A stretch of DNA of 24,865 nucleotides, taken from positions 4,173-29,037 of the forward strand of contig JAYPBG010000004.1 in assembly GCA_038124075.1 (NCBI GenBank). Reading direction: 5' to 3'. The DNA is from Gammaproteobacteria bacterium. GTDB lineage: Bacteria > Pseudomonadota > Gammaproteobacteria > Pseudomonadales > JAYPBG01. Positions 18,501-20,352 of this stretch are shown here, one piece after another. The notes beneath the pieces were generated by a model. The model did not search any database and was not told where the DNA came from. It saw nothing but the letters and a program-made list of their open reading frames with translations. Each line of letters opens with the position of its first letter. Position 1 is the first letter of the stretch. The translations under genes and the position numbers were made by a program.

Positions 18501-19970
18501 TGGCGCAATGTTGCAGTCGCCGGTCTCTTACCAACAGCGAGCAAAGGTTTAGACAAAGTAATTGGCGTGGATATATTAGACGCAGCCAATAGCGCAAGGA
18601 ACCCACTAACAAGAGGAGCGGCTGTGCTGTCATCTGAAGCTATAAGAGAGAATATTCGTAAGAATATTTATGGTGAGAAGTTTGATTATCATAGAGCGGG
18701 TCAGAATGCTGCGCAATCATTTATACAGCCCGTTGTAAATGAGGCTGCGATTGAGTTTGCAGAAGCTGCTGGGGCTGCGTTGGGTAGGAGGCATCAGCCA
18801 TTCTCTGATAACCCTACTTTGCAAACATCTTGGATGTATGGGGATAATTATCTGCTAGGTAAAGGCGCATCTTATGATGTAGTCACTCCAGAGGAGATGG
18901 CATACGCACGCGCAATAAATGGTGGAAACCTACCATCTGAATGGTTTGATTCATCCAAGAAGAGCACAGCGGAGCAGATTCATTCGGCAAGAGATTACTA
19001 TAGAGAGCACGTAGTGCCCTCACTGGATCGAGATAACCCATTGGCTGCTGTTGAATGGTTGGCGGGTCGCTATGGTAAAGGTGAGGCAGGGCATGGTCAG
19101 TTGAGCCCAGAGGTGATGAACTACCTATTAGGCGAAACTCATCAGTGGACTTTAGGGCGTGAGTTTAATGCACTAAATAGTGGGCTAGCGAGTGGCGCGC
19201 CCGGTCTCACTGAACGCTCTGTCATTCAGACTAAACTGCTTGCCAATGCGGGATTTGCTGCCCTCGTACATGATTCAGGTATAGATGTTTCTTCAATGAG
19301 TCAATCGTTGTTTGGTTGGGCACCTGATTTTAATACGTGGAGACCTAAGGACCTTGTTTTAGATGATGGAGTGGTTCGTCCGATGGACTCAACAGATCGA
19401 ACCTATAACGGGATTCACCCAAGTGAGTATGGTGAATCGTATATTGATATCCAGCAGGCGAGTGGCGATGCTGCTTATGCTAATACTAATGAGCAACGAC
19501 AGGATAATATTAATGTTTTACTGAATACGATTGATTATGCTGCTACAGGAATTGGATTGGCCACAGGCGCTGGTGCTATAGCCATCTTAGGAAAGTATGC
19601 ATTTAAGAAAGTAGCCTTTGGAACAAGCAGGAAGGAACTATTCAAGTCAACAGATAATACCTTGCGTACACTTGAAAGAATTGGCGATGCATCAATAATT
19701 ACTGGAATAACGGTTGCTGGGGCAAAGTATCATATAGATCCTGAGAAAAACGCTGGAGGCTTTGAGGGAGCCATCTTGAATGGGTTGGCAAATAAAACTC
19801 TTGGATCTACTGTCCAGTTTGGCAAGTCTGATATCAACGCAGTAATAGGCGTGAACGCCATGACTTGGTTAAAAAATGCGTTCTTTGATATACCAAAGTT
19901 CTTTGGTGAAGATGTATCTGGCATTCCTAGTGAGGGTATATTTTTGCCGAGGCTGAACAATGATCAATAA
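3585..19970 (+). CDS. Giant YD/RHS-repeat protein (5461 aa) with LysM, poly-Pro linker, hydrophobic pre-toxin helices and a variable C-terminus; putative polymorphic toxin
   Basis: Uninterrupted 16.4-kb ORF. RHS-type N-terminal VNVATGNL...L-x-x-TYNS motif. Dozens of YDxxGR/N repeats. LysM near aa 4725-4771, then PTLPEPPPPP and Ala/Gly-rich helices. Followed by an overlapping small membrane-protein gene. Confidence 0.92.
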   Translation: MTQIISSEGLGLLGSTLNLDSNSQSRVGQNPSTSHVNVATGNLVLTRHDEVIAAQGQHRSLVSTYNSRAELNGRTAFQFNFEQRLVLGSGTPNSTHHQISRISADGTQTTFTYDSSDGLYHTTDGSGAHDTLEYRSNDALPWVYTEGSSRYQEHYDANGLLVQISDLDHDGITTLTYVDGKVSTITDASNQVTTLVYSNGRVSAVNTATQDGQGNTIEATQVKYEYDAHNRLHKVHIDLTPENQSDNQVYSTTYTYDGNSERIASITQSDGSTVAYRYDSLQRLERQIVGTGSDQRVTRYVYGTQQTEIIHVINSNTDSGPRTLVQYDSQHRITEITTPADINGLTSTTSYTYDSDDNVIAVTDAAGSTISRRYDADGNMIEEQNELGETVTFQYDDQNRLIEQTHYKDRDSDGINGSATPNNGSSQHFIYDQNGLRFTVSHTGQVNESRYNELGQMTQSWGYTAHYTGTHMTLADLLSWSHDHRDALTQRSEHRYDFRGQLRQTTHFTELNDDGSPIRESGLTQHFTYDLHGQLLKSIDAKGNETTYTYDGMGRLLTTVNAKAQTASNVTYDDANQRVITAHLGDLHTVTVTNSAGVVTSRQQVETSTQSSDGTTHYLYDTLGRQVVVTDPSGISQYTLYDDLNRVLATVNGHGEVTEFRYDAAGRVVETVQYANQKALPTDFKTTISTITDLASLFYATVQPSQHADDRYTATYYDDAGRIAGTQDGHGALVEYRYDGAGNLVETIAYSNIAEIRSDYDANRTFDQAAFDTLVHSIVKESAHDRHTYSIYDASGKMLASVDGEGYLTEYQYSGTGQQTTVIQYSDKAKAVADLSNKLLTQSGHALVAQLKPSQTTDQAALNRPTFYAYNDLGQLTAELNPEGALTEYRYDANGHMTQQTTYATLIPQTVGPFDLENDRPNATAADQTTRYYYNELNQLVTEITPLGQVTEYHYTDAGQVSNQITYATALDHYGALGATQSVENISNEGRITKQDSVNLIDGGSAAVWLEEGTFTLALYSDGTPSTPYSTLNHEAIDGAENLSIGQLSDGHLVIVWNQSNGHIRAQRIDLENNVIGTEFQISTSTAHAVEAITVEGLDNGNMVVAWQARQSHDSDQIIYSRTVSNTGAALSDVQTVSSHTANGDSAPRIFELEGGDYHIQWSANTKTELRQVIYGDLFAVWQEHINDNTLMQRSYNSSGAALTDEIQIHPALPEQISGLNYQTLSNGDLVITWVSSEQLYGQRYSQESRQWSAVTAIAQAESASGFDQVEQRWHNDQLVLSLVDGASTERVILDFKHYAEEWIPQSRHNDRESISSYNYKGALTQTTSPLGESIDYQYDAAGRLKKTTNHTLSTHEYHYYDGVGRLKYVVNGAGEVTETQYNHFGEVEKVLQYENRISDTSSFTGGLLGSTDPVSNALGSNASFITVIENRYDHQGRLISTADGNSVETRQEYNAFGELSQIAKGVEAALSSAESFTAYRYDRRGLLTQSIKDATVTETVNSVTTTLHQGDDLTTTTHYDAFGRLSKVTNHNHALLTEKIYDRWESRVDTKTYFSENKSGTESIEHDAFGRIKARYQFDTTVTRPGTPDVEFSYNDKDQTITRRDINQNSSVTKVNGLGDTVEHKNALGIITQYETDAAGNITRMIEAVGRDEERVTQYVYNAAGQLRFEVDALRYVTQHHYDDAGRLIERTRFATQTSLSSLDALSYEMVDAAVTTDAEQDQTDHYIYNSRGLVIYHIDAMNYVTKSDYDHVGNLERSTRFSHTYAGPATQSDIERPATSGGLTANSAQDQLTTYQYDDLGRLTAETLKLFEHGAYTDLTESYQYDARGNLTAKTDRRGNITTYAYNDLNQLTGELRPKHSVDGDTAAADRKGYLTHYEYDLQGNRTKETLYMAEMSIYNRRADSYIDNSGNIIANLVTTTGGESGDRVTEYEFDTLGRTHRVISPEVNGKHSIVENQYDSIGNLVDIVEIEASGSSANNSYIETVLRVTHFEFDELGRVTHKYEGLKEIPTGFAENLTALENPSYSDYLDSIEQDPVTHTLTLSIQTPESFSEEPLLRITADGEVIFDQLPLTRKGSNLIELDLDDRIPSSLTIQRIDTTGTDLTIGYIELAGIRFEQNESLTIGESISMDTTHASEKEIEALFHSLRVSKFEYDAFGNIITELTPNAHELVTSNKQWAQNERARIAEKARKGDYNPLYTLNSLMDRALRSLPTDKNDLTAVQYDAIIQLYSKNNTYDGLNRLTRSSYFDGESKQATSYDAFNNVISTEDALGNKTVLFYDALNRLRFTKDGAGYVTERAYSHSNLVEKETNYHQAIQSITESHSLSEIATLLEQASSNLVNTEHYQVNTETRYVYDNVNQLKQIQKEHIQRDGLEQTIYETYAYDRNGNQINQYMSDTAAHNEAARSYEYRYDAQNKLISELKPESYVSVRNSSDSYVSVRTRLETTQAYDAAGNLISTTEGSNFSSTDLQYKTVFTYNKKNQITKRIQTSHIETYNPTTDATTDAYSETVYEYDSLGRNTASEDRIIASHDTNNIMQSRRTQEGYDLFDQKIWQVAPNGSLNVTAYDPSGNSFILRQYGHSDLSNTDWESIKSQLTSGSDDYRQTTQLFTLSGNLTESSQRTEHHFDLDAVLDLGSTYGDFYGYFEGSPKTVREYDKAGNLIKVRDANHNNTYYFYNERGEQIGKVDAEGFVTEFEYSHSGQLTRETKYAIALRDDEQPWNENSDFTTLINWVKSDDNALSTSVTQSPYVINNSDNRTTILTYDSLDRLIEKVTSANTSTTDAALSTSSSLNISNSQLKTIYQYDERGNMTKEINAEGDETDFNYNNLNQTISQIAPSMIDYRGNSVRLKTIFSYDQNGEVVRTDSRGVLASTEEDLNYDQSLTQSTTLLRNSSGFVEQEKKFSASNEFSTTYFNHNGFGNVTRKQWSITNHDDSTQHFKTTFHYDELGRETSRTDHNIYQGDTSERARGALISDTLTYMTSYNDYGDITSKGTYAGTQPTGFQAQEQFFYNKHGSVFKTNAGNGTWRVYLYDRAGNATNEISAVESFDLRTPEGTVTSTLGSISSTGQIHSVPLQDVQMKLSRFNGNGQIVDVYEPPMVFDNLVGDITLTHASSTDGTTESTTESALEWGDIKLSQVGQWTNIAGKTTSTLFTQRLNRDVYDFSDSNAIGIANTLGLNTAAPNKTLLTPSAAPKEDVISDITTNLFSASLDILEDHATFTVSQSSHLNWTIEFYSHDLDRIEQEITNNTRGLSSGIHLTLTSSQYDIHVSAQERSSGETVVNYTKKDVLNPIGIDSLEITWDIEKKITTTEVLDINGSILERYTKQDTDHTIHEEALKKSYTTTVDANGNSTTSVDERTDSAKKAHRQSQLVGQAHNNVRERFFGNYLKHELDIDKANTVSLKELADNNNYGTISYLPSDKLIIGHRRGTHDGKTTHRIKTMNSLAATPGSNQELFLKMRSTQTTSYNSHLRKNVNNVTITKSGRRIKNPYIIQDETYEREPISFNSSNGLEAESYLYSGSIYAMDSKLNSDHEVTDVRISITTAGGHTRASGDVNLYRHYKNNKYFTTTINIPDLLTVGQIPDANKVVLYHYRNGSLLKSVNLEYIEKDRNFIWEDTNNINWGSDTFKLKAFYKPEEGGSQKDELIMYADGRFDSNYTPTLTHNTIHYVEKNTTGEKERVYLSGVYEDTLDDHWYTDPAQRSYIKNIAYSILNTGDSPTSSSNDLSDDSTTPIYETDDNGDFQGNIIHRSQKYNAFGDIISETDGRGYTTFNRYNNVGWLEETRAPETDVYKESGSAIRLSPTKRYFYNALGELVASEDANSTSSSGSSLYEIRVRDNGKVTKEIHRDSGVKLYGYDVYGNTRRVIDEIDQHTRNEFDINGNITSTTKFQVKSDATTSDRRNLNVSLGKLDTLATEEYGYDELGKRISHTNAIGLSEHYIYDGMGRIRLHAELSDLGILGPQNTSGPITRYDYEFKNELTHQGSGFLKTTANELAGLAWNYHNNVANEAPFNTDEYEDSVHIIEASLTNTNPNGHHKIIDAENYFGKKQYHIDMGGHRFDYEYNDAGWLVKQTANTGVRDAASGDYVTETLGAGANKYFRVDQHITYDYYANGHLKSVNDTGTNTQSRFAYDKNGNRIQEIIHHNSEDLDIEEGSQENYELVPYQVSHATYDELNRIKYINDAEYSVFYGYDANSNRRFVGSYFHDGSATPSDEEVETLQYYSDRVSQWGSQEVKVNMKTSLYDGVGANYEILADGVTIGSGTLTNTTYQEFTFHYEGSPAKEIQVRFTNDAADDNQDRNLFVEWLEYQMVRYQSDSSAVIYNRANDSIKGQSSMDRNGSLHFNTSMKAGSLYGYIYDSMDRFTTTMGKVTLDASGNIHSINIGHTGFELSYNKSGQRTQQKSNLKLLNGTPQQEVERYYYNGLGQLARIEIGTSESSLETKGLKLHDASGRLVQEAHVTSSGDIIAKHYNYTAYNQLNDSTTYEPTSTSSLSGAINLNSFNLVYRDDTDLLISHTTRNGLSKSQTDQYSYLVDQKTLDIINQKRYVDGSVDTEIDLYYLYYQYDRFDEFKLSQVIIKGTGVDDHREHGWKSGYSLYQYNGNGHVRQVRDGHANRTLSYVNNHRGMVLQRQEDRMVSTTESGKPFHRDFYYMNGIVIGDVGNDDTIASRVDYAQSLALIDADNHNDIGDRVFPTISADFDQNFRPINANYPAKTGTQYRTVEGDTLQGIAAALWGDSSLWYLIADANALSADTALEPNLSLHIPNVVTNIHNNSDTFRPYDAGLALGDTNPTLPEPPPPPSPECGVKQILIVVVAAVAAAFTAGAAFAAMGFTSAAAGGGALTLGAAITGTAAAGASTLAVAGGIIAASAIGGAVGSITRQGLNIATGEQDHFSWSQVGKEALVGGVSGGLTMGANVGLQAISNSGNWASSAATMIHNSRSSQYMMHAASSEVGRIAANQSTQFEWRNVAVAGLLPTASKGLDKVIGVDILDAANSARNPLTRGAAVLSSEAIRENIRKNIYGEKFDYHRAGQNAAQSFIQPVVNEAAIEFAEAAGAALGRRHQPFSDNPTLQTSWMYGDNYLLGKGASYDVVTPEEMAYARAINGGNLPSEWFDSSKKSTAEQIHSARDYYREHVVPSLDRDNPLAAVEWLAGRYGKGEAGHGQLSPEVMNYLLGETHQWTLGREFNALNSGLASGAPGLTERSVIQTKLLANAGFAALVHDSGIDVSSMSQSLFGWAPDFNTWRPKDLVLDDGVVRPMDSTDRTYNGIHPSEYGESYIDIQQASGDAAYANTNEQRQDNINVLLNTIDYAATGIGLATGAGAIAILGKYAFKKVAFGTSRKELFKSTDNTLRTLERIGDASIITGITVAGAKYHIDPEKNAGGFEGAILNGLANKTLGSTVQFGKSDINAVIGVNAMTWLKNAFFDIPKFFGEDVSGIPSEGIFLPRLNNDQ
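6505..7485 (+). other. Beta-propeller-like repeat region inserted among the YD repeats (about aa 974-1300)
   Basis: YD pattern stops and is replaced by repeated L-x-D/N-G-x-h-V-h-x-W units (LSDGHLVIVW, LDNGNMVVAW, LEGGDYHIQW, LSNGDLVITW) with the GAALSD/GAALTD duplication. Confidence 0.6.
9705..9986 (+). other. Degenerate CBM60-like beta-sandwich module inserted among the YD repeats
   Basis: PLLRITADGEVI...LTIGYIELAGIRFE parallels the clearer copy at 16296-16637 (YEILADGVTI...LFVEWLEYQMVRYQ) but lacks the ND...DRNL motif. Confidence 0.45.
16296..16637 (+). other. CBM60-like (Ca-dependent carbohydrate-binding) module inserted among the late YD repeats
   Basis: ILADGVTIG...IQVRFTNDAADDNQDRNLFVEWL...NGSLHF matches the F-x-ND...DRNL-x-V-D/E...NG-x-L-x-F pattern of CBM60-type modules. 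Confidence 0.7.
17757..17897 (+). other. LysM domain
   Basis: YRTVEGDTLQGIAAALWGDSSLWYLIADANALSADTALEPNLSLHIP fits the LysM pattern Y-x-V-x-x-GDTL-x-x-IA...I-x-x-AN...L-x-IP. Confidence 0.9.

Positions 19971-20352: not shown

Follow-up and report, generated by a model that had tools for sequence, protein, structure and literature searches.

A candidate membrane-acting toxin and its putative immunity gene at the end of a giant LysM-YD carrier from a gammaproteobacterium

What is carried at the C-terminus of the giant YD-repeat protein encoded on contig JAYPBG010000004.1, and is the small membrane-protein gene that overlaps its stop codon the matching immunity gene? The contig belongs to a Gammaproteobacteria bacterium (GenBank assembly GCA_038124075.1). 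The whole stretch analysed here, 24,865 nucleotides from contig positions 4,173 to 29,037, is referred to as the window; nucleotide (nt) positions are those of the window, and the features of both genes lie on its forward strand. The giant open reading frame (ORF) extends from 3585 to 19970 and encodes 5461 amino acids (aa), and a candidate immunity ORF of 130 aa with an ATG start occupies 19960-20352. An earlier reading made from the letters of the DNA, hereafter the sequence-only reading, had taken the two as a new pore-forming toxin/immunity pair. The proposal of a pair is strongly supported by position, as the junction preceding the tip is kept among relatives, the tips diverge, known toxins are found among them and the partner ORFs are coupled to the carriers. 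From these comparisons it is very likely that aa 5051-5461 and the 130-aa ORF constitute a toxin/immunity cassette. That the tip is a membrane-depolarising toxin and its partner a membrane immunity protein is, by analogy with known systems, the best single explanation of the locus, held tentatively and with a probability a little short of half.

The ORF list and the translation identify the giant gene product as a YD/RHS-repeat carrier (E = 1.9e-116 for RHS_repeat in Pfam), which contains a CBM60 insert and matches DUF6531 weakly. Giant relatives, 22 in number and measuring 3848-7402 aa, were found in a search of 5.8 billion proteins; they come from Lysobacter, Acinetobacter, Paraburkholderia, Variovorax, Microbulbifer, Pseudomonas and others. 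When one genome for each of 185,579 species was scanned for the pattern, 499 loci with the LysM-YD junction emerged, of which 80 were retained; these came from Hahella, Zooshikella, Microbulbifer, Chromobacterium, Sphingomonas and others, often several per genome. The nearest relatives are only 25-40% identical to the window carrier in the body, and the best-conserved part of the carrier, common to the whole family, is the junction at aa 4725-5050 (17757-18734). Here the order is LysM, GDTxPTLPxPPPPP, an invariant Cys in GGCGG, a Gly/Ala-rich block and about 150 residues with repeated Q-x-F-S/D-W-x-x-V-A motifs. The LysM-like segment at aa 4725-4771 (17757-17897) matches Pfam LysM weakly and is strongly conserved in an alignment of 16 relatives. 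In the same alignment the Pro-rich linker at 17982-18020 (consensus PTLPxPPPPP...GGCGG) has invariant Pro and Cys columns, and the Cys at its end, Cys4811, is by residue count the sole Cys of the 5461-aa protein. The Gly/Ala-rich block, delimited by hydropathy at aa 4808-4886 (18006-18242), is found in all relatives, including carriers with TNT, ADP-ribosyltransferase and Ntox22 tips. Because it is conserved whatever toxin is carried, it is to be read as a predicted delivery or anchoring module and not as toxin. The final constant segment at aa 4895-5050 (18267-18734) contains the repeated motifs and matches the tails of relatives by phmmer with E down to 1.9e-14.

Similarity to the 22 giant relatives and the 80 loci stops between aa 4800 and 5087, and sensitive phmmer searches against the relatives' tails place the end of the constant region at about aa 5045-5050; the variable C-terminal region was therefore taken as aa 5051-5461. 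When aa 4895-5461 were searched exhaustively with phmmer against 1.84 billion representatives, the sole match spanned aa 4898-5045, which is the constant part only. The stretch that follows the Cys is 650 aa long in the window and 486-762 aa in the complete relatives in which the Cys motif was detected.

Beyond the junction the relatives diverge, and for 77 of them the tips, each defined as the last 250 aa, were compared. Known polymorphic-toxin domains occur in about a third, from 20 Pfam toxin or pre-toxin families, and the other two-thirds are without annotation. Deaminases are represented by BURPS668_1122 and YwqJ, ADP-ribosyltransferases by the Scabin and HYD1 types, and nucleases by LHH, WHH and NS_2 nucleases, a barnase-type RNase and a colicin DNase; further tips carry an EC869-like contact-dependent inhibition (CDI) toxin, TNT, Ntox22/43 or a Tle1-like lipase. 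Where checked, the recognised toxin domain takes up the extreme C-terminal 90-130 aa. In 76 of the 76 relatives scored, a small ORF with a median length of 141 aa is located at or just past the carrier stop. The two frames overlap in 43 loci, 17 of which share exactly 4 bp, and in 29 the small ORF begins no more than 30 nt beyond the stop; the overlap count is possibly inflated by an ORF picker that took the earliest start between -80 and +200 nt. In all 76 the guanine-plus-cytosine (GC) content of the partner ORF is below that of the carrier tail, with a median difference of 0.11. Immunity families recognised among the partners are SUKH-type (SMI1/KNR4), CdiI, Barstar and Tdi1, and a partner rich in transmembrane (TM) segments accompanies about one in eight tips. 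The comparison of relatives suggested by the sequence-only reading thus found tip and partner to be variable across the carrier family, not invariant, and the swapping that the sequences reveal is one among members of the protein family and not among sister strains.

The small ORF of the window fits the slot defined by these relatives, with 130 aa, an overlap of 11 bp and a GC difference of -0.16 in the family comparison. The sequence-only reading had described the next gene as overlapping by 11 bp, AT-rich and endowed with three to four TM segments, and this is confirmed for 19960-20352, which has a GC content of 0.315 relative to 0.47 in the body of the giant gene and about four TM helices as judged by translation and hydropathy. 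The overlap comprises the final codons and the TAA stop of the giant. A GAGG ribosome-binding site at 19949-19952, read from the sequence 7 nt before the ATG of the small ORF, is contained in the last codons of the giant, an arrangement that predicts translational coupling. From hydropathy and the distribution of Lys and Arg the helices are predicted at about residues 25-40, 42-61, 74-96 and 102-119. The positive-inside rule places both ends and a KRIK loop in the cytoplasm, and the outward loops are very short. A single-sequence AF2 model of the protein is all-helical with pLDDT 75 and gave no match in the PDB by Foldseek. The protein has no significant match in Pfam (E up to 10), NCBIfam or PDB sequences, and no homologue in the 5.8 billion proteins by word-based search or in 85 related loci by tblastn and phmmer. 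In Logan contigs from three estuary-metagenome runs the sequence from the tip through the overlap to the end of the small ORF is reproduced without a single difference, a match that is not independent support since the runs are possibly the same samples as those of the genome assembly.

The variable region itself falls into two parts. Its N-terminal part, aa 5051-5300 (18735-19484), is soluble-looking and without a Pfam, NCBIfam or PDB match. The tip proper, the candidate toxin domain at aa 5301-5461 (19485-19967), has a GC content of 0.41, about 24% Gly plus Ala and is helix-rich in a low-confidence model. All three of the hydrophobic, Gly-rich strings that the sequence-only reading singled out are in place, starting at aa 5318, 5369 and 5419 (nt 19536, 19689 and 19839). 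By hydropathy, hydrophobic moment and a motif scan, TM grade is reached in the tip by a single helix, aa 5317-5340 (19533-19604), whose Kyte-Doolittle maximum over 19 residues is 1.43; hydrophobicity is mild in the other two strings. Within this helix a small-xxx-small zipper is formed by A5320xxxG5324xxxG5328 and G5322xxxA5326xxxG5330. From about nt 19500 (aa 5306) the GC content drops, with 0.41 over the giant's last 470 nt, and it does not recover within the small ORF. This persistence suggests that the last ~160 aa and the 130-aa ORF travelled together as one imported unit.

The earlier remark that the tip lacks any recognised nuclease or deaminase motif holds, as nothing significant was returned for aa 4790-5461 in Pfam (E up to 10), NCBIfam or PDB sequences. 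With the tip, phmmer against PDB chains (E up to 10) gave only chance-level matches to unrelated proteins. The word-based search of the 5.8 billion proteins with aa 5200-5461 returned the query alone, and the tip has no match among the 85 related loci by tblastn or phmmer, where the lone weak match of the variable region was that of aa 5072-5140 to one Hahella locus. A second copy of the tip or of the 130-aa ORF was not found in the genome itself. As far as their sequences tell, tip and small gene are orphans within a known kind of system, in which only the sequences would be new. In the language-model Atlas aa 5051-5300 look folded (a high recognition value of 2389). The Atlas also points weakly to a transglutaminase/papain-like fold for aa 5050-5300, with a score of 0.90 and 119 shared features. 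An active thiol enzyme was rejected here, the region being without Cys, and this lead would be either chance or a catalytically dead scaffold. Leads to PT-TG and to Tle1-like C (scores 0.84-0.85) share few features and were likewise discarded. By analogy with two-domain CDI ionophores, aa 5051-5300 are possibly an entry or linker domain.

How, then, could such a pair act? In the proposed mechanism aa 5051-5461 would be the variable cargo, a polymorphic toxin C-terminus, and the 130-aa gene would encode the matching immunity protein. After delivery into a neighbouring Gram-negative cell the last ~160 residues would insert into the cytoplasmic membrane and dissipate the membrane potential as an ionophore or small pore, the preceding ~250 residues (5051-5300) acting as linker or entry domain. 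The toxin proper is expected in the last domain because the known toxins of relatives are C-terminal. In the producer the 4-TM immunity protein would reside in the inner membrane and, since it has almost no exposed loops, would block the toxin inside the bilayer, one helix contacting another. What the sequences show is the architecture, the point at which the constant region stops, the variability of tip and partner gene across the family, a partner of membrane type and the lack of an enzyme signature. From this arrangement we infer that the tip is toxic, inserts into membranes and depolarises them and that its partner neutralises it, and likewise the target organism and the delivery route. 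The pore-forming toxin of the sequence-only reading is hence plausible on account of the zipper-bearing TM helix, the lack of an enzyme signature and the membrane partner, and the support for it is limited. The main pointer is the integral-membrane immunity candidate, for a partner with such small loops could hardly neutralise a soluble enzyme and could bind helices in the bilayer.

This pointer can be compared with the rest of the family. Ten relatives with membrane partners were flagged by a crude classifier, of which eight are truly TM-rich. The other two are artefacts: in one, a deaminase tip is followed by a 293-aa partner of weak hydrophobicity, and in the other the partner of a Tle1-like lipase tip is of lipoprotein type. 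A recognisable enzyme tip is found in none of the nine loci with TM-rich partners (the eight relatives and the window), compared with about a third overall, and glycine-zipper hairpins are evident in several of the eight relatives, such as L003 and L057. Of the crude tip measures compared across the family, just one gave a nominal signal, tips with membrane partners having more zipper motifs (p = 0.036, without correction for the four tests or for relatedness among the loci). Hydrophobic hairpin tips with glycine zippers, followed by small ORFs of 1-3 TM segments, were observed in four loci, L003 (16066-17449), L057 (2636-3751), L002 (18936-20063) and L029 (7373-8331). These tips are mutually different in sequence and without Pfam match, and judged by sequence they look like further membrane-type toxin/immunity pairs.

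Several results weigh against this interpretation. Tip hydrophobicity shows no significant link with a membrane partner among the relatives (5/21 versus 11/57), and the tip of the window is unexceptional among the 77 relatives' tips, being at the 77th percentile for hydrophobicity and at the 64th for zipper motifs. A motif search did not find the strict GxxxGxxxG in the tip, and its five zipper motifs compare with 16 in CdiA-CT(EC93), which together with CdiI(EC93) was taken from plasmid pCP127 as calibration. The AF2 model of the tip consists of helices at pLDDT 34.6 and is unusable. Neither tip nor ORF has a homologue in the databases searched, so that the activity is a matter of deduction. 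As to the pair itself, the locus was present in 0 of 40 genomes of the same order, and the reads show no alternative tips in the sampled population. The codon-position periodicity of the small ORF is weak (chi-square p = 0.19), and part of its hydrophobic look could therefore stem from T-richness. The single hydrophobic segment of the tip is in turn no argument against an ionophore, because in the validated CT(EC93), too, the measure applied to the tip finds no more than one strongly hydrophobic segment.

The weak periodicity is also the point from which the whole pair could be doubted. The tip might be decayed or scrambled by recombination and the ORF a chance frame or an unrelated membrane protein such as a holin-like release factor; this is very unlikely. 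It would suit the absence of homologues for both sequences in the databases searched, the tendency of T-rich DNA to give hydrophobic translations and the multicopy RAYT-type element directly downstream, which suggests local rearrangement. However, the coding periodicity of the tip is strong (codon-position chi-square p = 3e-7) and its variable region stays open for 412 codons, and an open frame of 130 codons was reached in only 3 of 5000 shuffles, making it improbable by chance in AT-rich DNA. The ORF moreover has a Shine-Dalgarno site, its overlap with the giant is of the sort typical for coupled immunity genes, and the same slot is filled in every relative scored. Granted a real cassette, the toxin might nevertheless not be a pore former and might act at or in the membrane by other means, its target being for instance a lipid carrier, a phospholipid or a complex of membrane proteins. 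The immunity protein would then be embedded in the membrane only because the toxin acts there. Such a toxin seems unlikely. With two-thirds of the family tips lacking a known domain, the absence of a motif is weak evidence for a non-enzymatic mode, the tip has just one TM-grade helix, and the soluble-looking aa 5051-5300, with their high recognition value in the Atlas, are roomy enough for a novel enzyme fold. But hardly any of the immunity candidate lies outside the membrane, where a soluble enzyme would have to be bound, and no catalytic motif or fold was found in Pfam, NCBIfam, PDB sequences or the Atlas, where the transglutaminase-like lead needs the missing Cys. Those family toxins that act in the periplasm, the Tle1-like and lipase-like ones, are paired with signal-peptide or lipoprotein partners.

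The folded appearance of aa 5051-5300 to the language model likewise favours placing the toxic activity there, with the hydrophobic last 160 residues as a membrane-anchoring or translocation helper, and hydrophobic helper segments are common in the family, the conserved Gly/Ala block being one. This arrangement is decidedly unlikely, for in every relative with a recognisable toxin it is the very last domain, and in CDI ionophores the entry domain comes first and the ionophore last (PMC11630599). The GC drop near nt 19500, too, makes the last 160 aa and the immunity gene, not the middle part, look like one imported unit. A membrane-depolarising tip thus continues to be favoured among these explanations.

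The closest functional analogues of the pair are plausibly Rhs Tse5-CT/Tsi5 and the CDI ionophores, closer than the colicins, and on sequence membership in the Tse5, CDI-ionophore, colicin or Tox-WTIP families is not supported. Tse5-CT, the roughly 150-aa C-terminus of an Rhs protein, contains TM and amphipathic helices and depolarises cells (PMC9637101), and its effect is reversed by Tsi5, an inner-membrane immunity protein with two TM helices (PMC9637101, PMC10684867). As in Tse5 (RhsP1)/Tsi5 of Pseudomonas aeruginosa, the window has a YD/Rhs carrier, a tip without enzyme signature and a membrane-protein gene directly downstream. In contrast to Tse5 its carrier is four times larger, without PAAR and without PxxxxDPxG, and has the LysM-PPPPP-Cys-Gly/Ala junction; the immunity candidate has about four TM helices and not the two of Tsi5. 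No type VI secretion system (T6SS) genes were seen on the 29-kb contig. Similarity to Tse5 residues 1169-1317 was not found by phmmer against all PDB chains, among which the Tse5 chain is assumed to be present.

CDI ionophores consist of an entry domain and a five-helix ionophore domain in which a glycine zipper is the sole shared element, and they pair with small hydrophobic CdiI proteins that are two-helix hairpins of 72-100 aa with both ends cytoplasmic (PMC11630599). The locus of the window resembles them in a variable N-terminal part followed by what is predicted, at low confidence, to be a helical membrane domain with a zipper-type Gly motif, in a hydrophobic, tightly coupled partner whose N- and C-termini are probably cytoplasmic, and in the great diversity of both partners. 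Unlike them it has a YD carrier and not a CdiA filament, the protein has no VENN motif, and its zipper is made up of only AxxxGxxxG and GxxxAxxxG variants (aa 5320-5330) with fewer motifs; its partner has 130 aa and about four TM helices as opposed to 72-100 aa and two. BLASTP found nothing between the tip and CT(EC93) or between the ORF and CdiI(EC93), the best E being 0.23 over 8 residues.

The immunity proteins of pore-forming colicins are integral inner-membrane proteins of 3-4 helices that act within the bilayer. The colicins themselves (A, E1, Ia) kill through a C-terminal domain of about 175 aa, which becomes inserted into the inner membrane (PMC2585860). A C-terminal candidate killing domain and an integral-membrane immunity candidate are what the window has in common with them. 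The tip has one hydrophobic helix in place of their hydrophobic hairpin of about 40 residues, and gene order and carrier are unrelated. Pfam gave no match to the colicin pore domain PF01024, a 10-helix channel domain, at E up to 10, nor was there a colicin chain among the PDB matches at E up to 10. The colicin-type likeness drawn in the sequence-only reading is consequently reduced to an analogy. Tox-WTIP, which occurs in RHS and PVC toxins, has been predicted to be a pore toxin with two helices (Zhang et al. 2012, PMC3482391) and is likewise a small, hydrophobic and non-enzymatic predicted tip on proteobacterial RHS carriers; its defining motifs RxxR and Wx[ST]IP were not found in aa 5050-5461.

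A regular-expression search did not find the canonical Rhs self-cleavage motif PxxxxDPxG(L/W) anywhere in the giant protein. Two DPxG matches, at aa 631 and 2572, are both within YD repeats. By sequence, the LysM-PPPPP-GGCGG junction appears to stand in place of the canonical PxxxxDPxG cleavage site. A more far-reaching and rather improbable reading is that the tip founds a homologue-less class of membrane-depolarising toxins and that the carriers follow an undescribed delivery logic, in which the Gly/Ala block, and not a T6SS or CDI apparatus, would carry the cargo. This logic, to which no greater likelihood is attached, would belong to LysM-YD giants with an invariant Cys and no Rhs cleavage motif that are often found beside flagellar-type export genes.

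Genes of the latter kind lie upstream of the giant gene here and downstream of it in some relatives. On the contig of the window FliF, FlgD, an FlgE of about 700 aa and FliP are followed by small exported proteins and an FG-GAP protein and then by the giant gene, and upstream flagellar-type genes are located at window positions 1-1082 and in L007 (G000:C4:1-4400). Downstream, FliQ and FliR homologues were found within 10 kb of the giant gene in 11 of the 85 related loci and FliP in three more, a count that covers downstream neighbours only, as the 10-kb upstream flank falls inside the giant gene. The 14 loci with flagellar export genes downstream are L003, L005, L016, L027, L032, L036, L040, L043, L046, L054, L070, L071, L073 and L081, and FliQ-FliR-FlhB were seen directly in two loci that were looked up. 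Four FliP/SctR paralogues are present in the genome. This gene content suggests an accessory flagellar-type system linked to the LysM-YD toxins.

Directly after the immunity ORF the window contains a RAYT-like transposase gene (20364-21650), which in three metagenome runs has 10-40 times the depth of the flanking contig and many variant positions, and for these reasons it is regarded as a multicopy element in the community. An 18-bp tandem repeat, agaatcaaaaggacaccc, is present in two copies at about 20385-20420. Further downstream, 22029-22931 encodes a 300-aa ankyrin-repeat protein whose best NCBIfam matches are Dot/Icm Ank effectors, far below the cut-offs. Since the immunity slot of one relative is occupied by an Ank-repeat protein, the ankyrin-repeat protein of the window may by analogy have an immunity-type role. 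In Lysobacter enzymogenes CP117873 a short YD-repeat ORF was observed downstream of the immunity slot (L006, 18381-19151), which looks like an orphan carrier fragment or cassette as in classical rhs loci.

Polymorphic-toxin loci routinely contain unannotated toxin tips with membrane partners. The more unusual object is the carrier family, whose junction is non-canonical and which is linked to flagellar-type export genes; it lies outside the coordinates of tip and immunity gene. If the tip is confirmed as an ionophore, it would be a new sequence family among the few membrane-depolarising toxins used between bacteria, beside Tse5-CT, Tse4, Ssp6/Ssp4, Tke5 and the CDI ionophores, and its partner would be a further immunity protein, with 4 TM helices, whose action has to take place inside the bilayer. 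The pair would then help to explain how such toxins insert and how they are blocked.

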